64,000 nucleotides of DNA from Heterodontus francisci (GCF_036365525.1 NC_090376.1:33165075-33229074), one strand, 5' to 3'; counted from the first letter of the stretch, positions 10,985 to 48,499 are shown. The notes: a model not told the origin generated them from the sequence alone. Numbers and translations: made by a program.

Positions 10985-12113
10985 CAAGATTAGAGTGACT
11001 GCCCTTGACCTCAAGGCAGCATTTGACCAAGTGCAGCATCAAGCAACCCTCGTAAAATTGAAGTCAATGGGAATCGGGGGAAAACTGTCCGCTGGTTGGA
11101 ATCATACATAGCACAAAAAAAGATGGTTGTGGTTGTTGGAGGCCAATCATCTCAGCTCCAGGACATCACTGCAGGAGTTCCTCCAGGTAGTGTCCTCGAC
11201 CCAACCAACTTCAGCTCCTTCATCAATGACCTTCCTTCACTCATAAGGTCAGAAGTAGGAATGTTCACTGATGATTGCACAATGTTCAGCACCATTCGTG
11301 ACTCCTCAGATACTGAAGCAGTCTGTGCTCACATGCAGCAAACCTTGGACAACATTCAGGCTTGGGTTGATAAGTGGCAAGTAATATTCATGCCACACAA
11401 GTGCCAGGCAATGAACATCTCCAGAACAGAATCTAACCATCTTCCCTTGACATTCAACAGCATTACTATCACTGAATCAACATCCTGGGGGTTACCATTG
11501 ACTAGAAACTGAACTGGACCAGCCATATAACTACTGTGGCTACAAGAGCAGATCAAAGGCTGAGAATTCTGTGACAAGTAACTCACCTCCTGACTCTCCA
11601 GAGCCTGTTCACCATCTACAAGGTGCATGTCAGGAGTGTGATGGAATACTCTCCACTTGCCTGGATGGGTGCAGCTTCAACAACACTCAAGAAGCTCGAC
11701 ACCATCCAGGACAAAGCAGCCTGCTTGATTGGCACCCCATCCATCACCTTAATCATCCACTGTCTCCACCGCTGGTGCACAGCAGCAGCAGTGAGTACCA
11801 TCTACAAGCTGTACAGCAGAACTCGCCAAGTCTCATTCAACAGCACCTTCCAAACCCCGAACCTCTACCAGCTAGAAGGACAAGAGCAGCAGGCACACGG
11901 CAACACCACCACCTGCAAGTTCCCCTCCAAGCCACACACCATCCTGACTTGGAACTATATTGCCGTTCCTTCATTGTCGTTGGGTCAAATTCTGGAACTA
12001 CCTTCCTAACAACAATGTAGGTGGCTCACCACCACCTTCTCAAGGGCAATTAGATTTGGGCAACAAGTGCTGGCCTTGCCAGTGATGCCCACAACCCATG
12101 AAAGTATAAAAAA
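10985..12113 (+). mobile_element. CR1-superfamily LINE (family B), 3' fragment
   Basis: GVPPGSVLDPTNFSSFINDLP..MFTDD RT motifs (ORF 11096-11512) and 3' tail. Confidence 0.9.
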
Positions 12114-15677: not shown

Positions 15678-18600
15678 TTTCTTCTTCTTTGGCCTCCTTG
15701 TCTCGAGAGACAATAAGGAAGTGCCTGGAGGTGGTCAGTGGTTTGTGAAGCAGCTCCTGGAGTGGCTATAAAGGCCAATTCTAGAGTGACAGACTCTTCC
15801 ACAGGTGCTGCAGATAAAATTGGTTGTCAGGGCTGTTACACAGTTGGCTCTCCCCTTGCGCTTCTGTCTTTTTTCCTGCCAACAGCTAAGTTTCTTCGAC
15901 TCGCCACTCTTTAGCCCAGCCTTTATGGCTGCCCGCCAGCTCTGGCGATCACTGGCAACTGACTCCCACGACTTGTGATCAATGTCACAGGAATTCATGT
16001 CGCATTTGCAGACATCTTTAAAGCAGAAACATGGACGGCCGGTGGGTCTGATACCAGTGACGAGCTCACTGTACAATATGTCCTTGGGGATCCTGCCATC
16101 TTCCATGTGGCTCACATGGCAAAGCCATCTCAAGCGCCACTGACTCAGTAGGGTGTATATGCTAGGGATGTTGGCCGCCTCGAGGACTTCTGCAGTGGAG
16201 ATATGGTCCTGCCACCTGATGCCAAGGATTCTCTGGAGGCAGCGAAGATGGAATGAATTGAGACGTCGCTCTTGGCTGACATACGTTGTCCAGGCCTCGC
16301 TGCCATAGAGCAAGGTACTGAGGACACAGGCTTGATACACTCGGACTTTTGTGTTCCGTATCAGTGCGCCATTTTCCCACACTCTCTTGGCCAGTCTGGA
16401 CATAGCAGCAGACGCATTTCCCGTGCGCTTGTTGATTTCTGCATCGAGAGACAGGTTACTGGTAATAGTTGAGCCCAGGTAGGTGAACTCTTGAACCACT
16501 TCCAGAGTGTGGTCGCCGATATTGATGGATGGAGCATTTCTGACGTCCTGTCCCATGATGTTCGTTTTCTTGAGGCTGATGGTTAGGCCAAATTCGTTGC
16601 AGGCAGCCACAATCCTGTCGATAAGTCTTTGCAGACTCTCTTCTGTGTGGGATGTTAATGCAGCATCGAGGAGTTCCCCAATGAGGACCTTCCATACTTT
16701 GGTCTTCGCTCTTAGGCGGGCAAGGTTGAACAACCTGTCATCTGATCTTGTGTGGAGGAAAATTCCTTCTTCTGAAGACTTGAACGCATGTGAAAGCAGC
16801 AGGGAGAAGAAGATCCCAAACAGTCTAGGTGCGAGAACACAGCCCTGTTTCACGCCACTCAGGATAGGAAAGGGGTCTGTTGAGGCACCACCAAGCTGAA
16901 TTCTGCCTTTCATATGGCCTGGAATGAGGTGATGATACTTAGTAGCTGGTGAACATCCGACCTTTGCTAGTAGTTTGAAGAGACCACGTCTGCTGACGAG
17001 ATCAAAGGCTTTGGTGAGATCTATGAAAGCAACGTAGAGGGGCATCTGTTGTTCGCGACATTTCTCCTGTACCTGACGAAGGGAGAACAGCATGTCAATG
17101 GTGGATCTCTCTGCTCGAAGCCACACTGTGCCTCAGGGGAGACACGCTCAGCCGGCTTCTGGAGTCTGTTTAAAACGACTCGAGCGAAGACTTTCCCCAC
17201 AATGCTGAGCAGGGAGATTCCATGGTAGTTGTTGCAGTCACCACGATCACCCTTGTTCTTATAGAGGGTGATGATATTGGCATCATGCATGTCCTGTGGT
17301 ACTGCTCCCTCATCCCAGTACAGGCAAAGCAGTTCATGGAGTGCTGAGAGTATAGCAGGCTTGGCACTCTTGATTATTTCAGGGGTAATGCCGTCCTTCC
17401 CAGGGGCTTTCCCACTGGCTAGAGAATCAATGGCATCACTGAGTTCCGATTTTGTTGGCTGTACGTCCAGCTCATCCATGACTGGCAGAGACTGGGCTGC
17501 ATTGAGGGCGGTCTCAGTGACAACATTTTCCCTGGAGTACAGTTCTAGGTAGTGCTCCATCCAGCGGTCCATTTGCTTGCATTGGTCAGTGATTGTGTCC
17601 CCTGATTTAGAATTGAGGGGGGCGATCTTACTGATGGTTGGCCCAAAAGCTCTCTTACTGCCATCATACATTCCTCTGATGTTTCCAGCGTCGGAGGCCA
17701 GCTGAATACGACTCCTTAGGTGTTGCCAGTAGTCATTTGCGCTGCGCCTGGCTGTTCTTTGTGCAGCGCTTCTGGCTGCTTTAAGTGCTACGGATGTTAA
17801 CTCGCTGGGGGCTTTCTTGTAGTTCAACAGTGCAATGCGCTTAGCGGCTATGACAGGTTCCAGCTCTTCAAAGTGAGATTGAAACCAGTCTGCATTCTGC
17901 TTCTCACGTTTGCCAAAGGTGGTCATTGCTGAGTCATAGATGGCGTTTCTGATGTGGGCCCACTTGGTCTCTGCATCCCCTGCAGGAGTGTTTTGAAGGA
18001 CTTTTTCAAGTGAATTTAGAAACTTATGCAACAGCTGTGGATAAGACATTTTGTTAGTGTTGATGCGCGGGCGGCCCTTCTGCTTGGAGTGATGCAGCTC
18101 CTTTGGTTTGAGTGTAACCTTGCTGCACACCAGGGAGTGGTCGGTGTTGCAATCTGCACTGTGGAAGCTGCGTGTGAGTTGAACACTGTTTATAGAGGCT
18201 CGCCTTGTGACGATGAGATCCAGCTGGTGCCAACGACGTGATCTTGGGTGCCTTCAAGAAGCCTGGTGACAGGGTTTAGTATGAAAGAACGAGCTGGTGA
18301 TGCAGAGGTTGTGGTAGGTGCACAACTCCAGCAGTCTCTGTCCATTCTCATTCATCCTTCCAATGCCATAGTGCCCAAGGCAGAAGGGCCATGAGTCATG
18401 GTCGGCCCCAACCCTGTCCCCCAGCAGGAACAAATGTTGAGTATTGGGAAAGCTACTAATGATATGGAGTTCCTCGTAGAACTGGTCTTTAACTTCAGGC
18501 GGGGAGCAGAATGTCGGAGCATAGATGCTGAGTAGGTGTACTGGACCAGAGGCGGTCAGCAGTTGGATGGACAGTATGCATTCCGAGCCATTTGAAGGTG

Positions 18601-19427
18601 GCTCTATCATGCTGAACAAAGAGTTTCTGATGGCGAAGCCCACTCCATGCTGTCTTGGCTCTACAGGATCCCTACCCAGCCAGAAGAAGGTGTAGTCTTG
18701 CTCTCTTTGAGATCCGCTTGCAGGGAGGCGTGTCTCCTGAAGTCCTGCAATGTCTACATTGAGTCTACTGAGCTTGTTGTTAATGATGGCGGTCTTCCGA
18801 GAATCGTTGATTTGTGTAAGGTCTTCCAACAGGCCAGGACACATAGTTCTGACGTTCCAGCTTGCAAAACGAAGGGCTGGTACCTTCTTTCATTTTTTTG
18901 TTGTGCTGTTTGGTGCGGTGTTACAGTCCACTTGTCAGGCAATGACCCTGAGCCTTGATTGAAGCAGGTGGACTGTGGCGGGACAGAACCTTACTGACTG
19001 GGGACTGCCCGGTTTGAGGCGGGCGGTAGCTGTCCAGTGAGATACGATGACCTCTCCCGCCGACAAAGGCAACCCGTGGCGCCCAATCTCTATGCCAGTT
19101 GAGCTGGAATTATAACCCGTAACTGCTGCCTTCCGTGTTGTTTTGGTCACTGTGAGGCGACTATGGAGTGACCTCTCCATGGCGCATGCCTGGGTAGATG
19201 TATGGAGGTTGTGAGTTGCCCAAGCGTCAAAACCCCCCTCTCGGCCTTCCTGGTGGGGTCCAAAGGAGTGCAGAGCACGACGTTTGACACCGGTATGGCT
19301 GCAGGAACTGCCCGAAACATGCCAAAGGTGACAAATGACTGCCTTCGGGGTTTCGCTCCGGATTTTCTGTTAGGGTTTACTCCCTTAGCCCTGGCCTCAC
19401 CTGAAACGCCCACAAGGCAGTGGGATT
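15678..19427 (-). mobile_element. Full-length RTE-clade LINE
   Basis: Single APE-RT frame in three pieces, 5' UTR of about 540 bp, (GAA)n 3' tail. Confidence 0.95.
15735..18885 (-). pseudogene. RTE APE endonuclease/reverse transcriptase, frameshifted
   Basis: ASWNVRTM, LQETR, SIYAPT (APE); DLTKAFD, GVKQGCVLAP, FTYLGS (RT); C-terminal CSTCGRVCHSRIGLYSH zinc finger; FADD motif reduced to ELL-DAAL. Confidence 0.95.
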
Positions 19428-22735: not shown

Positions 22736-25520
22736 CTAACACCTTCTGCACTTCTGGGGCCCATATCCCTCTATTCCCTTCATATTCATATATTTGTCAA
22801 GATGTCTCTTAAACATCGCTATCGTATCTGCTTCCATCACCTCCCCTGGCAAGTTCCAGGCACTCACCACCCTCTGTGTAAAAAACTTGCCTCCCACATC
22901 CCCTCTAAACTTTGCCCCTCTCACCTTAAACCAATGTCCCCTAGTAACTGACTCTTCCACCCTGGGAAAAAGCTTCTGACTATCCACTCTGTCCATGCCG
23001 CTCATAACTTTGTAAACCTCTATCATGTCGCCCTTTCACCTCTGTCGTTCCAGTGAAAACAATCCGAATTTTTCCAACCTCTCCTCAAAGCTAATGCCCT
23101 CCATCCCAGGCAACATCCTGGTAAACCTCCTTTGTACCCTCTCCAAAGCCTCCACGTCCTTCTGGTAGTGTGGTGACCAGAATTGCATGCAATATTCTAA
23201 GTGTGGCCTAACTAAGGTTCTGTACAGCTGCAACATGACTTGCCAATTTTTATACTCTATGCCCCGACCGATGAAGGCAAGCATGCCGTATGCCTTCTTG
23301 ACTACCTTATCCACCTGCGTTGCCACTTTCAGTGACCTGTGGACCTGTACGCCCAGATCTCTCTGCCTGTCAATACTCCTAAGGGTTCTGCCATTTACTA
23401 TATACCTCCCACCTGCATTAGACCTTCCAAAATGCATTACCTCACATTTTTCCGGATTAAACTCCATCTGCCATTTCTCCGCCCAAGTCTCCAACCGATC
23501 TATATCCTGCTGTATCCTCTGACAATCCTCATTATCATCCGCAACTCCACCAACCTTTGTGTCATCCGCAAACTTACTAATCAGACCAGCTACATTTTCC
23601 TCCAAATCATTTCTATATACTACAAAGAGCAAAGGTCCCAGCACTGATCCCTGCGGAACACCACTGGTCACATCTCTCCATTCAGAAAAACACCCATCCA
23701 CTGATACCCTCTGTCTTCTATGACCGTGCCAGTTCTGTATCCATCTTGCCAGCTCACCTCTGATCCCGTGTGACTTCACCTTTTGCACCAGTCTGCCATG
23801 CGGGACCTTGTCAAAGGCTTTACTAAAGTCCATATAGATAACATCCACTGCCCTTCCTTCATCAATCATCTTCGTCACTTCCTCAAAAAACTCAATCAAA
23901 TTAGTAAGGCACGACCTCCCCTTCACAAAACCATGCTGCCTCTCGCTAATAAGTTTGTTTCTTTCCAAATGGGAGTAAATCCTGTCCCGAATAATCCTCT
24001 CTAATAGTTTCCCTACCACTGACGTAAGGCTCACCAGCCTATAATTTCCTGGATTATCCTTGCCACCCTTCTTAAACAAAGGAACAACATTGGCTATTCT
24101 CCAGTCTTCTGGGACCTCACCTGTAGCCAATGAGGATGCAAACATTTCTGTCAAGGCCCCAGCAATTTCTTCCCTTGCCTCCCTCAGTATTCTAAGGTAG
24201 ATCCCATCAGGCCCTGGGGACTTATCTACCTTAATGCTTTGCAAGACACCCAACACCTCTTCCTTTTTGATAATGAGATGACTGAGACTATCTGCACTCC
24301 CTTCCCTCGGCTCATCATCCACCAAGTCCTTCTCTTTGGTGAATACTGATGCAAAGTACTCATTTAGCACCTCGTCCATTTCCTCTGGCTTCACACATCG
24401 ATTCCCATCTCTGTCCTTGAGTGGGCCAACCCTTTCCCTGGTTACCCTCTTGCTCTTTATATATGTATAAAAAGCCTTGGGATTTTCCTTAATCCTGTTT
24501 GCCAATGACTTTTCATGACCCTTTTTAGCCCTCCTAACTCCTTGCTTAAGTTCCTTCCTACTGTCTTTATATTCCTCAAGTGCTTCATCTGTTCCTAGCC
24601 TTCCAGCCCTTACAAATGCTTCCTTTTTCTTTGACTAGGCTCACAATATCCCGTGTTATCCAAGCTTCCCGAAACTTGCCAAACTTGTCTTTCTTCCTCA
24701 CAGGAACATGCTGGTCCTGGATTCTAATCAGCTGACGTTTGAAAGACTCCCACATGTCAGATGTTGATTTACTCTCAAACAGCCGGCCCCAATCTAAATT
24801 CTTCTGTTCCTGCCTAATATTGTTATAATTAGCCTTCCCCCAATTTAGCACCTTCACCTGAGGACTACTCTTATCCTTATCCACAAGTACCTTAAGACTT
24901 ATGGAATTATGGTCACTACTCCGAAATGCTTCCCCACTGAAACTTCGACCACTTGGCCGGGCTCATTCCCCAATACCAGGTCCAGAATGGCCCCATCCCT
25001 AGTTGGACTATCTACATACTGTTTCAAGAAGCCCTCCTGGATGCTCCTCATAAATTCTGCCCCATCCAAGCCCCTAGCACTAAGTGAGTCCCAGTCAATA
25101 TTGGGGAAGTTAAAATCACCCACCACCACAACCCTGTTACCTTTACATCTTTCCAAAATCTGTCTACATATCTGCTCCTCGACCTCCCGCTGGCTGTTGG
25201 GAGGCCTGTAGTGAACCCTTCCTATTCCTGACCTCCACCCATATTGCCTCGCTGCATGACCCCTCTGAGGTGTCCTCTCTCAGTACAGCTGTGATATTCT
25301 CCTTAACCAGTAATGCAACTCCCCCACCCCTTTTACATCCCCCTCTATCCTGCCTGAAGCTTCTAAAGCCTGGAACATTTAGCTGTCAATCCTTACCTTC
25401 CCTCAACCAAGTCTCTGTAATAGCAACAACATCATATTTCCAAGTACTAATCCAAGCTTTAAGTTCATCTGCCTTACCTGTTATACTTCTCGCATTGAAA
25501 CAAATGCACTTCAGACCACC
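22736..25520 (-). pseudogene. CR1 ORF2 (APE + RT); longest open part 23036-24505
   Basis: VVGDFNFP, LDLVL, KSPGPDG, NYRLVSLTS, DFSKAFDKVPH, GVPQGSVLGP, KFADDTK; several frameshifts. Confidence 0.93.
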
Positions 25521-37200: not shown

Positions 37201-37519
37201 TTTATTTTATTTCTTTAGAGATACAGCACTGAAACAGGCCTTTCAGCCCACCGAGTCTGTGCCAATGAACAACCACCCAATTATACAAACCCTACAGTAA
37301 TCCCATATTCCCTACCACCTACCTACACTAGGGGCAATTTACAACAGCCAATTTACCTATCACCTGCAAGTCTTTGGCTGTGGGAGGAAACCGGAGCACC
37401 CAGTGAAAACCCACGCGGTCACAGAGAGAACTTGCAAACTCCGCACAGGCAGTACCCAGAATTTAACCCGGGCCCTGGAGCTGTGAGGCTGCGGTGCTAA
37501 CCACTGCGCCACTGTGCCG
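37201..37519 (-). mobile_element. HE1-type V-SINE
   Basis: Same head, V-domain and tail as 32835-33190. Confidence 0.9.
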
Positions 37520-38087
37520 TGATTGATCACTGGCCAATAAACTCTCTCACTTGCAAGTTGTTTTGATCTTTCAATGCCCATGTGACCTTGATGTAATTGG
37601 GTAAGGATAGCCAATATCTCAATACCTGTCTTTCCTTGAAAATGACCATTTGATATCCCCAATTTGTCACAATATAGCAAAAAGATTGTGAGGTCTGTGA
37701 GAACATCTTGCATTGTACCTGTCCATCCAGTGATATGCTGCCATAATGCCCTAAGGACAGGATTTCTGGAAGTCTCTCTTTGGAGCTCTATGCATTTGTT
37801 CTGTCCAAATTGCTTTAGGTCAATGTTGTACATATCTAGTTCCACATCTACTTCGTCCAATTGGACATCCTCCAGTAAGTCTTGTCTTCTTTTGGTTGGG
37901 CAGCCTCCTCAATATGTCACACATAATCATGAGGTTTCCAGGTTTATATTGGACTTCACAATCATACATCCCTGTATTTTGATCAGTAGTCTTGGGAGTT
38001 GTGACGGCGCGCTGGTGAGTAGTTTTTGCCAAATAATTGCTATTGGCTTGTGATCAGTCTCAACAACAAAGTGTTTGCCAAGTAGGT

Positions 38088-39107
38088 TGTCAAGAAAATC
38101 CTATATGCCACATGAGAAATATTAATTTCATGGGTTTGAAATTTATCTTAGACTTTTAATGAGAAATATCCTACAAGTTAACTTTAAAAAACAACTAGCA
38201 GCCAAGATGACCACTGCCATTTACATGTGAAATACCAGGAGATTGAACTGGGGACAAAAAGTCTAACAAGAAGCCCAGCCAGAACAATTCTTTGGCTAAC
38301 TGAGTAGATTAGCCAGATCATCCTTGTTAGCGGGACATCGCAAACTATTTCAGCATTCATAAATGGAACCGTACCTCCGGGGGTAAGTCCTGACAACTCC
38401 ACCTGAGAAAGGTTTTGTGTTTTAGAATTGGGACCTCATTAAAAACAAAGGGGATTGAGAGAACCATGTGACTGTCTATCAATCTCAGAAGAAACTGGGA
38501 GTTGTTAGACAAAGAGACAAGCAGTAACAGAGTGGGCTGCAGCTGAAAGCTGTGTGCTTCCCTTTCTCTCTCTCTCTCCCCAGTTGAAAACCATCGGTAA
38601 CTGGGGGACCCTCCAAGCCTACTGACTGTGACAGCCAATGACAAGAGGAAGAGAACCAACTGCAATTCTACCTTCAAGCAACAGTGAGCAAAGCAGGCCA
38701 ACCAAAATGCACTTTGACCAACGAGGACTTCAAGAATACAGCTTCAGCCGAGGACTACTGGATCATCCACTGTGTATTTAAATTCCATTTATTCTGGACT
38801 TTAATCCAACCACCAAATCTAATTTTTCCTCTGTAATCTATTTGTGTGTGTGTAATTCTCGTGTGAATGTGTAGTGTTTTGTTTTAGTATTTTTAAATCG
38901 GGTTAGAGTGTTAAGCTTACCTCTTTCTTGTTTAAATTTAAGAAGACCTGTCCAATTGGTTCTTTCATGATCACAGTAAAGGTAAAACGTAAAACACTCA
39001 GAGGTGGTAAGCACAACTACTGTTTAAAAGGAATAAACCCTATTGCGGTCAAATGAGAGGAAGAGCGCAAGGCGAGCCTGAGACCCCCTCCTCACTTGGC
39101 TGTAACA
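38088..39107 (+). mobile_element. Solo LTR (family A) in Gypsy RNase H
   Basis: TGT...ACA termini; TSD AGGT/AGCT; removing it restores FHVYLLGKHFVVETDHKP. Confidence 0.85.
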
Positions 39108-39989
39108 AGCTACACATGGAATCTGGTAATACTGAACACTAATGCCAATGTTTCTCGTTCTATGTTTAATAGTTCTCCTGAGTGGGTGACAAACTTTTAG
39201 AACCAAACGTAATTAATCTACCTTCCTGTAACAGACATGCTCCAAAACCCTCTTGTGATGCATCAACTTTGTGTGTAGTTTCCTTGGGTTATAGTATTGT
39301 AAACATTCTTCAGCAGAAAGTGACTTTTAATGAATTTGTGTTCTGATGATTTCACGCCACAAGAATGGCACATCTTTCTTGAAAAGTTCACGTAGTGATG
39401 AGGCTTTCCCTAAGAAATTTGAGATATATGGTGCTAAGAAGTTAAACTGACTCAAAGCCTCAACTTTACTGGGATATGGTCATATTCCAGTGTCAGAATA
39501 GATTGAACTGAAAAAATTAATATGGCTCACATTGATAGCACATTTTTTGCTATTATGCATGAGACCTTCTCTTCTAGCAGTCTCCATTAGAATGTGAGGA
39601 TACTTGTCATGCTCTTCCCATGACTGCTATGTCATCAGCAATGCAAACACAACCAGGATAATGTGATCCATATGTTGTAGGACCATGTTTTGATTCACTG
39701 CCAGACCGAATGATAACTCTGGAAAGTAATACCTCCCAAAAGGTGTTCTGAATGTTGTTGGTTCCTGTGAATCTTTGGAAAGATGTACTGACCAATATCT
39801 ATGTTTCACACCCAACTTTGAGAAGAACTTGGCTCCAGCAAACCTTGGTGTTACACTAATGTATTTTGTTGAATGATCCATTTATTCCTACTCTTTTTTC
39901 TGTCTGTTAACCATTCTTCATTCCATGCTATTACCCAATCCTATGAGCCCTAATCTTCTGCGACAACCTATTGTACGGCACCTTATTGC

Positions 39990-42372: not shown

Positions 42373-43434
42373 AATGTCTTCCCAATAGTTAATTGGAGAA
42401 ATGTTTTGCTCATCCAACACTGGATGTCAGACAAGCAGCTTGACAAATCAGAACAAGTTTCATTTTTAATTCAGTCGTACTGCAAGGGCAATAAGGGATG
42501 GCCTTGCCAGTGATGCTCATCCCAGGAATAAGGAAAAAAAACTTGACATAAGCCAACATTATCTGACATACATCTGCAGCATAAGTCCAGTACAGTTAGT
42601 GATTACTGTTACATTTTGCACAGTCTGAAAATAATGTGATAAAAATCCATTAGTTTTGCAGCTAAGCATTTTTTTCACAGATGCAACATTACGTGATTCT
42701 GTTGAGTGCGTTTTTACTTACTGACCCACTGAGAGTGTGGCGAGGAGTGGGGTGGGGATCACCAACATGCCGGGTACCTGGAAGTTTTAATTTCACAACA
42801 TGAAACCTCTGGCCCTGACAGGTTTACCACCTGAAATTCAGCCAGGTTTGACTTCCAGTTGGGCAGAGAGCACTCCTGAGGAGGCCACAGGACCAGGCAT
42901 GTCCGATCCTCAACCCTGGGGTGGGGGTTCTGACCCCAGGTGGGGTCTGAAAGCATAGTCGGGGTGTGAGGGTCCGATTCCAAAGGGGGTTTCTTATCCC
43001 AAGGGGTGTCTGATTCCCAACCCCAGGAATGTGGGCTCGATCCCTGTCTCTGGATAGTGGATGAGTGGGGGTGGTGTACAGTCGTGGTGGCGATGGCTGT
43101 TGTATGGAGAGGGAGCGGGGTTAATGGTAGGGGAGTTGATGAGCCAGGGAAAAGCACTCCTGTTTCACTTGGCCCACATGGAGTGCTGTGAAGGTGTTTA
43201 CCTTCTCCCTGAAGCTGTCCTCACCTCGCTGTACCTGCTGGGTTTCCCAAGCGCCGGGACGCCCTGTTAGGCCACAGTTAAACCTGCAAAGCAAATTAAA
43301 TCTGAGGCGTCCAGCTTCTAACTTATTTAAATTGGCAACAAACCTCCTGGGAATGGGATGGCTGCCAGTAGTGAGAACTCAGAAAACTACCTCCTTGATC
43401 TTTTCTTTTCTTACTCTGCACTCATGAGTGTTTT

Positions 43435-43812
43435 TGAAAAATTCTTTCATGGGATGTGGATGTTGCCTGCAAGACCAGCATTTGTTGCCCATTCCTAACT
43501 GCCCTTGACCTGAGCAGCTTGCTAGGCCATTTCAGAGGGCAGTTAAGAGTCAACCACATTGCTGTGGGGCTGGAGTCACATGTAGGGACAGCACATTTCC
43601 TTCCCTAAAGGACTTGTGAACCAAATGGGTTTTTACGACAGTTGATGATAGTTTCATGGCACCATTGCTGAGACTAGCCTTCAATTCCAGATTTTAAATA
43701 ATTGAATTTAAATTCCACCAGCTGCCGAGGTGGGATTTGAACCCATGTCCCCAGGGCATTAGCCCAGGCCTCTGGATTACTAGTCCAGTGACATTACCAC
43801 TACTCCACCGTC
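43435..43812 (-). mobile_element. tRNA-derived SINE with CR1-like tail
   Basis: Same family as 7430-7840 and 29905-30706. Confidence 0.8.
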
Positions 43813-43872
43813 TTCCCCCTTAATGTTGTGGGGATGGAATCTAACAGTGGACATGGGGATCTAAATTTATTA

Positions 43873-43960
43873 CAAAAACAAAAAGTGGTGGAAATACTCA
43901 GCAGCATCTGTGGAGACAAATGCAAAGTTAACGTTTCAGGTCTGTGACCTTTCATCAGAA
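43873..43960 (-). mobile_element. 88-bp Penelope-derived insertion
   Basis: 12-bp direct repeat ctaaatttatta at 43861-43872 and 43961-43972; homologous to 2443-2571. Confidence 0.8.
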
Positions 43961-43962
43961 CT
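43926..43962 (-). ncRNA. Minimal type I hammerhead ribozyme motif
   Basis: AGTT CTGATGA A AGGTC-ACA-GACCT GAAAC GTT AACT: intact core, 5-bp stem II, 4-bp stem I, palindromic AACGTT stem III. Confidence 0.75.
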
Positions 43963-44237
43963 AAATTTATTATTGTGTTCATTATATGGGTCTAAAATGT
44001 TATCAGTTTAGCAATGCAGAGACCCATGTCTGATAAATGTGGAAATTCAAACCACTAGATTGTTTGGGACCTTTTTTTTTGGCAGCCCTGACAATTGCCT
44101 GAAATGAGCACAGGCCATTTAAGTATTGGAATGAGGCTCCAGCTCTTAATTCAGCCCCAGTTTCCTAAATTCGGAGCTCCAACTGGCATCTCTGGGTATT
44201 GAGCAGCCTGAACAACGGTCCTTAAAGGGAACATAGG

Positions 44238-44511
44238 TGTTGTATGATTGCCTTTAAGAGTGATGTCCCTTTAAGATTTTCGTATGTTAATGAACCAAGT
44301 ACCACGATGCAGTTATGTGACTCGAAGCTTGAATCTCTCTGCTACTGTAACACCTAGAAGCAGGTTCTGTAAATAGTTAGTTCTGTACTGTATATACTTA
44401 GCTGTTAATAAACCTGTTTGAAATCTTCAACCAACTGGACTCCACGCATTTCATTTATGTCGTATCAGACATCACAAAAATAATTCATTATGGTGGCAGC
44501 TCCTCATTAAA
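44238..44511 (+). repeat. 5' LTR
   Basis: Direct repeat of 47297-47572, roughly 85-90% identical by eye; TG start; AATAAA near 44407. Confidence 0.95.
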
Positions 44512-44529
44512 TGGTGGCAGCTGCGGTGA
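44512..44529 (+). promoter_or_regulatory. Primer-binding site, probably tRNA-Leu
   Basis: tggtggcagc(tg)cggtga immediately after the LTR, close to the complement of a tRNA-Leu 3' end (TGGTGGCAGCGGTGG). Confidence 0.7.
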
Positions 44530-45229
44530 GAAGACACAATCTAAACTTGAAGACCACAGGTAAAACAGCTCTGAAAAGACCTTTCCCACAGCTAAGAGAG
44601 AGAAAGTTAAAAAAACTGGCTCAAACAGTAAAAAAAAAACTTACCCAAGCTGTAGAAGACAGAGCACAGAATGGCAAGCTGCAAATAAGTCAGGTGAATC
44701 GTTGTGCCAACAGTTGAGGGATACTGCCTTAAAAAAAGCTCTGAAAAGCTTAAAAATTGATTTTTTTTCAATGCCTCTGTTTAAAAACAAACTGGGAAGA
44801 CCCGACTCCTCTCCCAGGCTGATTAAAGTTGGTGCCATTACAGGAGGCGCCTGACAGCAAAAAGCATGGCAAAGCTCCATTCACGTAGCTTGCAGCTAAA
44901 GCTTAAAAAAATCATTAAATTACTTTAACATGAAGAGCTTTCATTCATGCAGTCAAAGTTTAAAAAACCCATAAAACCACTCAAGTGTGAAGAATTGCCT
45001 ATTGAACGGCTGTATCAATAAACTCTAGCAGAGGGAAAAACACATGAAATGCCTAGTGCAGCGACAGACAGAGTGCTGGAAGTTAGATAAACAGACAAGC
45101 ACTGCCACACACCTGCTCCTGTCAGACAAAGCAGCCAGTCTAGATAAGAGTTTTTTAAAAAAGGGAATACAGTACAGAGTCATAGAGCAAGTCTTAAAGC
45201 AAGTTTTAAAGCAAAAGAACAGCAGGAAG

Positions 45230-46510
45230 ATGAATACCAAATTTCCCAGCATGAACTAGAAGGCCATAGATATCCTATCCGAGTTCCAATTTTTCAAACA
45301 GAAAACGCAGTTATGCTTCACCGACCAAGAGATTACAGAACCAGAAAAACAGGCTGTAAAAATAATGATAGCAATTGGAAATGAGGGTTTATACAGAATC
45401 AATACCTCAGGCATATTTGAAGAGGACCAGAAAGATCCCACAAAGATATGAAAAGTGCTGGAAGATCAGCTCCAATTTAAGAGTAAATTTTAGAATTCAC
45501 CAGCTGGAATTGATGTCCTGCAGGCAACAGCTGCAGGAATCAATAGACCAGTTCATCAGTAGATTCTGTAACGAGGGCAACGAATGCGATTTTTCAGAAG
45601 CTGAGCTGTCAGACTGAATAATGGAGTTGGTGATTTTCTCATCATCCATTGAAGTGTTTCAGAAGGACCTCTTGGGGAAAAAGAAAGGTCACAGCATTGA
45701 TGCACTGCTAGAAGATGGCAGCAATTATGAAGCCATTGTAACTGGACAACAACAACAATGAGAACTAGGTGCAGCCAACAGTATTGGCATGATAACCAGG
45801 TCGAAGAGAGCGAGCAAGCTATGTGGGAAGTGTGGTTGGTCCAATTCACTGCGAAGTTGTCCTGCATTTTAGACGTGTGCAAGGCGTGCAGCGTAAAAGG
45901 ACACTGGGCCCACCTATGCAAGAAATCTGGCTCCAAAGTCGCAGCCAGAAGTCATAGTGGGGCACAGACAAACAGACGACTGGTTCAGCAACAGAGCAAC
46001 AGCAGCAAGGACAGCTCCAGAGACCTGCGTAAACGCAAGCCAATACACAAAGTCCACAGTGAAACAGACCTGAGACAAGACTCTGAGAGAAGCAATTCTC
46101 AGCCAAAAGACGAACAGGCGTTCCACATTGTGAACCGGACATGCCATGTTGATGAAAGCAAACAACTGGAAGCTTTCACCATTATTAACATCATGTGTCC
46201 AAAGAGAGCTGGCAAACATACACTTGGAGTTAAGATAGACACTGGCGCTAGTGCAAATATCCTACCAGTTCGAATCCTGAAGGACATGTACCGGAGTCAT
46301 TGGAAATCAATGATACAACCGACAACTTTCAAGTGATCTGAACACAATGGGTCACCCATTCCGTACAGTGGAACACTAACATTACAATGCAGCTATGGCA
46401 AGTCGGCATGGAAACCACAAATATTCTATCCAGTAGACACAAGCGGACCAGCAGTGGCAGGACTACCAGCGTGTAAGGACCTCGATATTGTCACTATTCA
46501 CAAGGTCACC
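45230..46510 (+). pseudogene. gag-pro: Gypsy gag and aspartic protease, with stops and frameshifts
   Basis: QQLQESIDQFISR..CDF capsid-like segment, CKACSVKGHWAHLC CCHC knuckle, VKIDTGASANIL active site, GPAVAGLPACKDL protease C-terminus. Confidence 0.9.
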
Positions 46511-47145
46511 CAATACAGCAGAAGAGACCAAGGGTAGCTGCATTGCCACACCAAGAGAATAAAGATCCAAACTCAGATGGTGAAAGTTCTCTACCAACAG
46601 GCAGTGTTTCTTCATGCTCCAGTGGTTCAGAAGACAAAATTGATGTTGGCACTACTGAGAAGCAAAGGCTGGCAGTGGGGAGCATTGTCAAGGGGAAATC
46701 TCCAAGGACCATAATCCACTCGTAGACTCTGGCCAGCATCAAATGGTGCAGTCTGGAAACCCAGCAATGGCACAACTATGCCACGGCTTTACGTCTGCTA
46801 TCCAGAGAACCGCCAGCACCACAACAAGCTGGAAAGGACAGGTACCGCCATGAAGCCAAGTACTCCTCCCCCAAAATGTCCTCGACCTTGAGCCCAAGAC
46901 CTTCAGGTGCAGAGGATGAGGAGAGGCGAAGGGCATGCAGTGCCTTGAAGAGGAAGACGAGGATTGAGTTGAAGCATTGTCTGTTGATTCTTCGAGATGA
47001 GGTGCTGGAACTTTCCAAGAATGACAAGGCCTCAGAAGTGATCATCATACAGAGTATGTTAGCAGGCTGAAGGCAGAACAACACAAACAATGCAGAGAGG
47101 GAGACACTTCAGAAAAAAACAGCAACAGCTTAGATGCAAATTCTC
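46510..47145 (+). pseudogene. myc: Captured C-terminal half of a Myc-family transcription factor (MBIIIb, MBIV, bHLH-ZIP), decayed
   Basis: One frame reads SSGSEDKIDVGTTEK (MBIIIb), IKWCSLETQQWHNYA (MBIV), SPRPSGAEDEERRRACSALKRKTRIELKHCLLILRDEVLELSKNDKASEVII (basic-HLH); after small indels TEYVSRLKAEQHK..AERETLQKKQQQLRCK (helix 2 and zipper); internal TAG at 46723. Confidence 0.9.
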
Positions 47146-47282
47146 CGGCACACCACCAAAACAATCGATGGACTTTTAAGCTTTTGCACATGTAAAGTTC
47201 ATAATCTCTATCCATGTGTAAATAATTTTGATATCTAATTTTATGTATTTTTTTTTACTTTTAGCATACGAGATTTATCCTT

Positions 47283-47296
47283 GGAAAGAAAGGGGA
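47283..47296 (+). promoter_or_regulatory. Polypurine tract
   Basis: ggaaagaaagggga directly before the 3' LTR. Confidence 0.9.
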
Positions 47297-47572
47297 TATT
47301 GTTTGATTGCCTTTAAGAGTGATGTCCCTTTAGGATCTTAGTATGCTAGTGAACCAAGTATCAGGAGGCAGTTATGAGACTCGAAGCCTGAATCTCTCTG
47401 CTACTGTAACACCTAGAGGCAGGTTCTGTAAATAGTTAGCTCTGTACTGTATATACTTGTTAATTGTTCATAAACCTGTTTGAGATCTTCAAAAAACTGG
47501 ACTCCACGCATCTTATTTATGTTGCATCAGACAACATAAGAACTCATTATATGGTGGCAGTTCCTCATTACA
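47297..47572 (+). repeat. 3' LTR
   Basis: Direct repeat of the 5' LTR; ends in CA followed by the TSD. Confidence 0.95.
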
Positions 47573-48499
47573 ATAGGCTCAAAAAAAGCCCAAATAATTG
47601 GAATCCTTTTTTGTGTTTTGTGGAGTTGGAAGGAGCTCCTGCTGTCACAACAGAACAACTGTGGCTCACTAATGGCCAGCCCTCACCCTCTTCTTGATCA
47701 CACCCCCCACCCTAGTCCCCCTGCTCTGCACCCAACCCTGTTACCGAACCTATCACTAAACCTTGGCCCCATATTCACATGGCCCCAAACCAGGCAAAGT
47801 GCATTAGGGTGCTTCATTGGTGCCTACTGCTTGCTTGATTTGTTTTGATGAGGTACAAGGGCAAGTTTACTTTAGACCTCGCACCTCTCCATTCTAGTGC
47901 ACCAAATTTGCTAGAATTCATATACAAAGGAACATAAAATCCAAAGTGAGAACAGGCACTTCAGCCGATCAAGCTCACAACTTCCAAAATCTGTGTATAA
48001 CTATTCTATCATGGACATATCTACTTATTTGATATTCTTTTCGCATTGAAACACATAGAATCTGCATCACTCATAAATAGTTATGAAGTTTCTCTGATTA
48101 TGGGACAAGCTGCAAGATTGCACCAGACTTGCTTTAAAAGTCTATTCTTTAAAATGCCATCTGCTACAAGGAAGTGCCACTTGAGGCCTGCAAATATGCA
48201 GAACATTCCTGTCCCTTCTGCCAGCACTAGATCCCGCTATGCAAATTCCATAGAGAGGAACACCCACTAATCCCAGATCTGGGCAGTGGTCAGTGAAGGA
48301 GGGCAGGAAAATCTGCACTTTAGTCCTTGGCCTGAGGACACATTCACAGACAGGTTTGGTTTATACTGGTTCAACATTTGTCCTGCTCCACTTTTCTCCA
48401 GTACGGTGTGGCAGATCCTTCAACCACTCCCCCGAAACTCTGCATTCATATTTGCCTTGAGTCAATGGGAAGGTCTGCTGGAGGCTGTGTTGTAATGAA

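Follow-up and report, generated by a model that had tools for sequence, protein, structure and literature searches.

A Ty3/Gypsy-type retrotransposon family in the horn shark that carries a fragment of mych in place of pol

What is a myc gene doing between two long terminal repeats (LTRs) in a shark genome, and is it the accident of one locus or the cargo of a family? The question is raised by a 64,000-nucleotide stretch of Heterodontus francisci DNA (GCF_036365525.1 NC_090376.1:33165075-33229074; hereafter the window), in which a first-pass annotation described a Gypsy retrotransposon with myc in the place of pol. We find that 44238–47572 is one member, now decayed, of a Ty3/Gypsy-type family of non-autonomous elements in the Heterodontus francisci genome. 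The annotated order – LTR, primer-binding site (PBS), gag, protease, Myc, polypurine tract and LTR, within a perfect ATAGG target-site duplication – is read directly from the sequence, and alignment agrees with it. The features of the window copy are as follows:

44233–44237, + strand: target-site duplication ATAGG, left (sequence and copy alignment)
44238–44511, + strand: 5' LTR, 274 nt (self-alignment/BLAST)
44512–44530, + strand: PBS, with 10 nt complementary to the 3' end of tRNA-Leu (with CCA)
45230–46000, + strand: gag, broken by stops and frameshifts (tblastn with P0123)
~45822–45949, + strand: zinc knuckles in gag (Pfam zf-CCHC_3, below cut-off, E 5e-4)
46170–46545, + strand: aspartic protease and linker towards reverse transcriptase (RT) (alignment to P0123)
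46545–46546, + strand: site of a ~65-nt deletion (copy comparison)
46546–47142, + strand: captured intron-less mych, here host residues ~156–358 (alignment to host Mych)
47143–47179, + strand: short unattributed stretch, then the last codons of the parent's integrase (comparison with pol-bearing copies)
47283–47296, + strand: polypurine tract (sequence; same in other copies)
47297–47572, + strand: 3' LTR, ending in CA (self-alignment/BLAST)
47573–47577, + strand: target-site duplication ATAGG, right (sequence and copy alignment)

The element has the hallmarks of the Ty3/Gypsy type, with two TG...CA LTRs, a tRNA PBS, a polypurine tract and a 5-bp target duplication. A Gypsy Gag-PR-RT polyprotein (P0123) matches its gag and protease at 28–32% identity (E 1e-39), and no RT, RNase H or integrase was found inside the element. 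The protease, which gave no Pfam match, has its DTG at 46238–46246 and a stop at 46334–46336; the protease/linker region is 80% identical in DNA to a pol-bearing copy (L043). Beyond the 10-nt match, the PBS has a 2-nt bulge and then pairs further with tRNA-Leu, and ARAGORN called Leu in two of the four PBS-matching host loci scanned and no tRNA in the other two. The final ~20 nt of the 5' LTR form an extension – a PBS-like piece and a repeat of the LTR end – common to three copies (the window copy, L010 and L021). With LTRs 87% identical by BLAST (p = 0.108, K2P 0.118 over 249 columns) and its stops and frameshifts, this copy is as old and inactivated as it had been taken to be.

The Myc part is likewise damaged, by a stop at 46723–46725 and three frameshifting indels. 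Within it the position of the host exon 2/exon 3 joint falls at 46630/46631, and in the basic region the His position reads Cys (46936–46938) and the Glu position Lys (46948–46950). No Pfam match was obtained for this decayed stretch. Its identity as Myc is nonetheless secure: translated with X at the stop, it matches Heterodontus francisci Mych at 72% identity (E 1e-63), and it matches human Myc bHLH structures at E 1.8e-6.

The host genome (6.0 Gb) encodes Heterodontus francisci Mych exactly (residues 2–183 and 183–366 at 100%, contig C16), in two exons that yield the stored Mych protein and are separated by a GT-AG intron of ~1,707 nt. In a tree of residues 133–358, built from 32 protein rows that include only 2 Mycn and 1 Mycl, all Mych proteins stand apart from Myc, Mycn and Mycl (100/100). 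Six element-derived rows join H. francisci Mych (97/94); Mych from five further sharks and from three rays falls outside this group. This grouping places the capture on the horn-shark lineage and, by tree position, the captured cargo is the mych paralogue of the Myc family, as the first-pass annotation had guessed.

How far does the element extend beyond the window? A 26-mer from host mych exon 3, allowed up to three mismatches, has 1,641 matches in the genome, one of them the host gene, and its reversed control has none. Since this 26-mer recovers 58 of 63 aligned copies, there should be ~1,800 or more mych-bearing copies; the candidate numbers of our first look (5,389; 3,257; 2,913; 2,899) are not copy numbers, and pattern counts are used here instead. 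A DNA search with the protease–mych region, as had been proposed, found mych at all 40 scored places, at 78–85% identity (the window itself included, at 100%). Host Mych residues 2–132, among 80 candidates, match the host gene and one paralogue only, so the copies are not ordinary gene duplicates. The copies studied below are top similarity-search matches, 63 of at least 1,640 rather than a random sample, and three of 40 added copies (L051, L054, L064) were left out because their alignments were short.

Flanking sequence was available for 21 copies. Both LTRs are present in 13 of these, with K2P distances of 0.10–0.20 (median 0.13, or LTR pairs ~13% apart). Outer ends could be read by eye in 11 of the 21; target duplications are exact in three and agree at 4 of 5 positions in five, all of them different, and the remaining three agree at 3 of 5 or fewer. 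Distinct 5-bp duplications among the readable copies support the proposal that the chimera integrated as a unit; the proposal of a multi-copy, helper-dependent family is upheld as well. Contigs from two other organisms span gag, protease, mych and LTR; in organism B, one of the two, they contain joints from the protease linker into mych. The family therefore predates at least one species split.

Six proteins that carry the label myc-like or N-myc-like in the horn-shark annotation (P0003, P0009–P0012, P0022) look like element copies, and would create a false expansion of the myc family. Among the best 150 of 305 matches in a search of 1.84 billion representatives, we found no gag–mych-type fusion other than P0011 and P0022; 16 matches of odd length, considered as further fusions, each proved to be a plain Myc or a plain Gypsy protein. 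Within the top 120 of 1,377 Mych homologues, Heterodontus alone has shortened extra proteins. These searches were made at the protein level, at which decayed copies in other sharks would go undetected.

We turned to the origin of the chimera. The host mych intron is missing from all 21 flank-fetched copies and from 62 of 63 aligned copies, and the template was therefore spliced mRNA. When the 44 residues around the P0011 junction were used as a query, matches fell into two classes, one continuing through into mych and one stopping at the switch point. The five that run through the junction all carry mych, and the five selected for stopping at the switch point all lack it and run on into pol. 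Two of the pol-bearing stretches (L042 and L043) encode RVT_1, RT_RNaseH, Integrase_H2C2 and rve in Gypsy order and have gag-PR, tail and LTR in common with the mych element at 72–83% identity; no 5' LTR was recognisable within either fetched stretch. A 26-mer from the RT region of this parent has 1,325 genome matches. In L042, L043 and L045, the end of integrase is ~180 nt from the 3' LTR, which leaves no room for env. A 134-aa piece of the parent RT gave mixed matches among solved structures ('Enzymatic polyprotein', Pr125Pol, Ty3 RT). The parent may be a Gypsy element of a Mag-like clade.

Parent and chimera together reveal both switch points. On the left, just 5' of the RT domain, parent and mych have the 7-mer GGATGCA in common at mych residue 121, and its codon phase is the same in both. 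The right switch follows mych residue 358: ~8 unattributed nt come next and then the last integrase codons, with no microhomology. Gag runs into protease in a single frame in L016, L020, L010 and L022, as does protease into mych in L012, L014, L017, L021 and L025, which makes it probable that the active element produced a single Gag-PR-Mych polyprotein. Read from these alignments, a Gypsy-type element evidently recombined with spliced mych mRNA in the horn-shark lineage, and mych residues 121–358 evidently replaced RT–RNase H–integrase, in frame with gag-protease.

We propose a single capture followed by mass amplification as a non-autonomous element, and regard the existence and origin of the family as near certain. 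The recombination would have been an RT template switch onto co-packaged mych mRNA. Having retained LTRs, PBS and polypurine tract, the chimera integrated at well over 1,600 places, with RT and integrase presumably supplied in trans by the pol-bearing parent, whose ~1,300 or more copies are similarly aged. The shorter, pol-less element would have spread because its cis signals were intact.

Another route to the same structure would be a LINE-made processed mych copy that landed in a Gypsy element, with pol deleted later and the product amplified. The genome is rich in LINE remains, and there are the unattributed bases at the right junction; however, we found no poly(A), 3' UTR or inner target duplication of the mych insert, the insert starts and stops within coding sequence of mych, pol has been replaced and not interrupted, and the left switch has microhomology. 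We consider this route very unlikely. A one-off insertion or an assembly artefact at the window locus is refuted by over 1,600 dispersed copies and by the linker–mych joints of the organism B contigs, and retains practically no probability.

The family that arose by capture was not uniform. A second, derived junction form, with its fusion at residue 133, has lost what lay between two 9-nt repeats, of which one sits in the Gypsy linker and the other in mych. Patterns for the two forms have 227 and 281 matches genome-wide (controls 0) and recover 3/4 and 15/37 test copies, so the first-pass annotation's fallback, that the junction might be unique to this locus, falls. Mych stays in frame with gag-protease in either left junction form (P0011, P0003). 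The two forms cluster on the copy DNA tree, with 5 changes against 18.7 when shuffled (supports are weak), and element tails come in two lengths among copies. The window copy is of the short-junction kind, and a deletion seen in it took ~65 nt more, among them the Gypsy–mych junction and mych residues ~133–155. Copies share switch points, as in secondary retroposition. The chimera went on evolving while it was mobile, with tail and LTR end altered in other lineages.

When did this happen? Over the captured mych, copies are 84–90% identical to the host gene, and the best non-host match to exon 3 reaches 92% (40 were scored out of 2,899 candidates). Copy trees are star-like, with terminal branches (median 0.096) that far exceed internal ones – a shape that points to a burst soon after capture and subsequent decay. 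Changes private to single copies are neutral (N/S 1.05–1.10), one of 59 copies is free of both stop and frameshift over the captured part, and the longest open frame is 451 aa (150 scored). A young or protected copy was considered and rejected on the 92% best match, the single intact copy and the length of that frame. A shared inactivating stop in the masters was also rejected, as each stop is either private or sits at a CGA/Gln codon, in no more than 4 of 21 copies. In the protein tree, the host branch after capture measures 0.041 and the stem before capture 0.046. Combined with heterodontiform fossils from 180 Ma (PMC7614348), these branches suggest – very roughly, and as a crude estimate – a capture ~50–130 Ma. 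All copies seen have decayed neutrally since they spread, over tens of millions of years.

We next asked whether the Mych piece could have worked. The Myc box I and box II motifs, which we take to be residues 42–49 and 101–104 of Mych (P0002), lie upstream of the captured part and are present in no junction form; the element thus had no transactivation domain and could not transactivate. The TRRAP-binding tryptophan has been placed in Myc box II (PMC7226237). In Myc, His359, Glu363 and Arg367 are the base-reading triad, and replacing the Glu abolishes DNA binding (PMC7226237, PMC6337544). The Mych equivalents are His286, Glu290 and Arg294. Glu290 is invariant in 26/26 cellular Myc proteins and is not in a CpG, and it has been lost in 50 of 57 copies; all seven that retain it have the long, older junction, and none of 36 scored short-junction copies does. 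A shared change affects the His286 codon in 33 of 58 copies, and Arg294 is mostly retained. Lys248 is retained in 24 of 60 copies; it is likely part of a nuclear localisation signal (NLS), which we presume from the likeness of PKRAR to the c-Myc signal. Because the changes at Glu290, His286 and Lys248 are shared among copies, they arose while the family spread.

Do these losses depart from chance? Shared element-side changes fall on residues conserved at 90% or more at 6 of 15 positions (45/190 expected), showing no depletion (P 0.11). Five element-side positions have changed in roughly half of the copies or in more, and three of them are Lys248, His286 and Glu290; chance would produce this enrichment with a probability of ~0.001 for a set of 10 DNA-contact and NLS residues and of ~0.06 for all 40 highly conserved residues, both sets chosen after the fact. 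Zipper and helix positions 303, 317 and 354 have also changed in sub-lineages. The dN/dS of the mych part, a measure that the first-pass annotation had suggested, is 0.87 (0.70–1.04), but an RT/RNase H control, functional in the masters of necessity, looks likewise neutral at 0.95 (0.81–1.12), and dN/dS thus cannot decide function. For gag/PR, three references gave 0.83 (0.68–0.97), 0.96 and 0.98. An earlier indication of purifying selection on mych (N/S 0.71–0.73, 26 copies) gave way, with 63 copies and stratified mutation types, to values of 0.87–0.93 with intervals that span 1. An N/S of 0.23 for changes common to most copies was set aside because it mixes in host-lineage changes (8 host, 9 element, 3 unclear).

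We think it probable that the Mych piece was a passenger and not an oncogene, because it never had a transactivation domain and because residues for DNA reading and nuclear import were lost in lineages that spread. Two observations sit against this. All fusion forms are in frame, which would be expected had translation into Mych mattered, though repeats in the same phase give that without selection; and shared element-side changes hit two of the three base-reading residues, more than chance expects (P ~0.017, post hoc). Brief selection in master copies may lie beyond the reach of the dN/dS test.

On the same origin, the piece may instead have been made and have mattered. A Myc able to dimerise with Max and to bind E-boxes, but lacking transactivation, would be a dominant negative in the germ cells in which the element replicates, and selection would then act to disarm a toxic fragment: lineages losing Glu290, then His286, and the NLS lysine would be less toxic and would out-replicate others. 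The confinement of Glu290 to seven long-form copies (0/36 short-form), the presence of Lys248, His286 and Glu290 among the five most-changed element-side positions and the in-frame state of every fusion form are all in keeping with such selection. Yet a single event on a single prolific lineage may lie behind each change, so that the effective sample is a few mutations; a frameshift or deletion would be an easier way to disarm the fragment, and neither has swept; and the zipper and helix changes (303, 317, 354) fit plain relaxation. We consider selection of this kind unlikely, and it seems to us equally doubtful that the element, expressing the module within its polyprotein, was shaped by an effect on the Myc/Max network, with most of the 1,600+ copies stemming from successive lineages that gave up E-box reading and nuclear import. 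If true, the copies would be a fossil record, in a vertebrate germline, of selection on a captured proto-oncogene in a selfish element. The opposite effect, in which captured myc drove host-cell proliferation as in MC29 and so aided spread, would suit a layout in which gag-(pro)-myc replaces pol in frame, a mych form no less abundant than its parent (1,641 matches to 1,325) and the finding that zebrafish mych promotes cell survival (PMC2323570, PMC3958507). It is largely refuted, however, by the lack of Myc box I/II in any form and the loss of the E-box Glu in 50/57 copies; no env or infectious route was seen, and non-autonomous LTR elements are said to out-proliferate their parents anyway (PMC5131818). 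We regard it as highly improbable. The likeness to MC29 to which the locus had first been compared therefore holds for layout and fails for function, with no box I/II and the DNA-reading His/Glu lost in most copies.

MC29 and FeLV-myc are helper-dependent viruses that carry spliced myc in place of replication genes and make a Gag-Myc fusion. They are infectious, tumour-selected retroviruses that retain the transactivation domain and DNA binding, and to our knowledge tumour retroviruses with captured myc never entered the germline. Like them, the mych element is replication-defective, with a host gene replacing replication genes in frame with gag. Unlike them, it is a germline, env-less, Gypsy-type element without a transactivation domain, and its cargo is mych, not c-myc; in place of an env-bearing retroviral helper it has a parent without room for env, and in place of active oncogene domains a fragment with no box I/II and with Glu290 in 7/57 copies. 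Id-type dominant negatives resemble the mych piece in anatomy alone, and so does Omomyc, a bHLH-zipper without a transactivation domain (PMC6337544).

Closer relatives are found among LTR-mediated retrocopies, reported in fly and mosquito, in zebrafish and chicken, and in mouse and human (Tan et al. 2016, PMC5131818). In these as in the mych element, a portion of a host mRNA has taken the place of internal ORFs between the LTRs, and further rounds follow as a non-autonomous element (PMC5131818). Their switches occur at microsimilarities (median 6 bp), with bases occasionally added de novo (PMC5131818); the mych element has 7 nt of microhomology at its left switch and ~8 unattributed nt at its right. 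Such loci are present in one or a few copies, whereas the mych element exceeds 1,600 copies and has sub-lineages; its cargo, fused in frame to gag-protease, is a proto-oncogene paralogue, and the species of that survey include no shark (PMC5131818). Maize Bs1 is also an LTR element with captured exonic sequence, secondary retroposition and shared switch points, but it is from a plant, has 1–5 copies and holds pieces of three genes (PMC5131818). The HERV-K/FAM8A1 chimera likewise joins a vertebrate germline LTR element to a host mRNA caught at microhomology, but it is a single untranscribed processed pseudogene and not an amplified family (PMC5131818).

The first-pass annotation knew of no such chimera described for a vertebrate Gypsy element. 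The capture of host mRNA by LTR elements is on record in vertebrates (PMC5131818), but we found no report of this cargo or of this scale. In the literature searched, with Repbase, Dfam and most subscription journals outside its range, no shark LTR family that carries myc came to light, and 10.64898/2026.07.01.735963 makes no mention of myc; a repeat library may hold the family unnoticed. The capture mechanism, LTR-mediated retroposition, is known, and the cargo and scale appear to be new.

Host-gene capture by animal LTR elements has been known from few-copy loci; here a Myc-family fragment is present in more than 1,600 germline copies. Parent, first chimera and derivatives are all preserved, which allows a direct reading of where the switches occurred and in what order later changes followed. 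The copies, up to 92% identical to living mych, may supply antisense or piRNA matches to it, and the family as a whole is a natural test of the fate of a proto-oncogene fragment inside a selfish element.

Both LTRs of the mych element carry about 20 extra nt at their ends (44490-44511 and 47550-47572), as do those of two other genomic copies (L010 and L021). This extension combines a PBS-like piece with a repeated LTR end, and could have arisen through a slip during primer removal or strand transfer that was later inherited. We also identified a tandem array in the host genome (G000:C34:18727275-18998384; period about 3,050 bp) whose units all share one tRNA 3'-end motif; the first of them is tRNA-Leu(TAG).

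The left flank of the element (43380-44100) contains short repeats present in very high copy, and summed contig depth there reached the thousands in all four sequencing runs. In run X11, from a different organism (organism B), a single contig with a depth of about 1,700-2,000 spans the knuckle-protease region (45915-46457) without mych. This contig may represent an abundant relative of the pol-bearing parent, or a transcript that contains the knuckle-protease piece.

The window also contains a second Gypsy-type remnant (37363-39857, minus strand), unrelated to the mych element and with no DNA match to it, and reverse transcriptase (RT) frames at three loci, spanning 161-532 aa. Because an endonuclease domain precedes one of these frames, their sequences probably represent LINE remains.

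39657-39857, minus strand: RT match (57%) of the second Gypsy-type remnant to the Gypsy polyprotein P0123
within 37363-37908, minus strand: Integrase_H2C2 domain of the same remnant
11027-11512, plus strand: RT frame(s), probable LINE remains
15735-18889, minus strand: RT frame(s), probable LINE remains
23036-24634, minus strand: RT frame(s), probable LINE remains

Of the 33 long frames in the window, 22 were scanned, and none of these was recognised as a host gene.

Elsewhere in the genome, L030 (G000:C5:179848588-179851962) is a second cellular Myc-family gene, with 41-53% identity to Mych. Named matches to the element's Gypsy linker include sea-urchin elements (P0203 and P0217; 42-47% over about 75 aa). 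In the horn shark, six proteins annotated as myc-like or N-myc-like (P0003, P0009-P0012 and P0022) contain Gypsy linker sequence at their start or the element's tail at their end, and one of them, P0011, has a 100% match at G000:C3:105720299.
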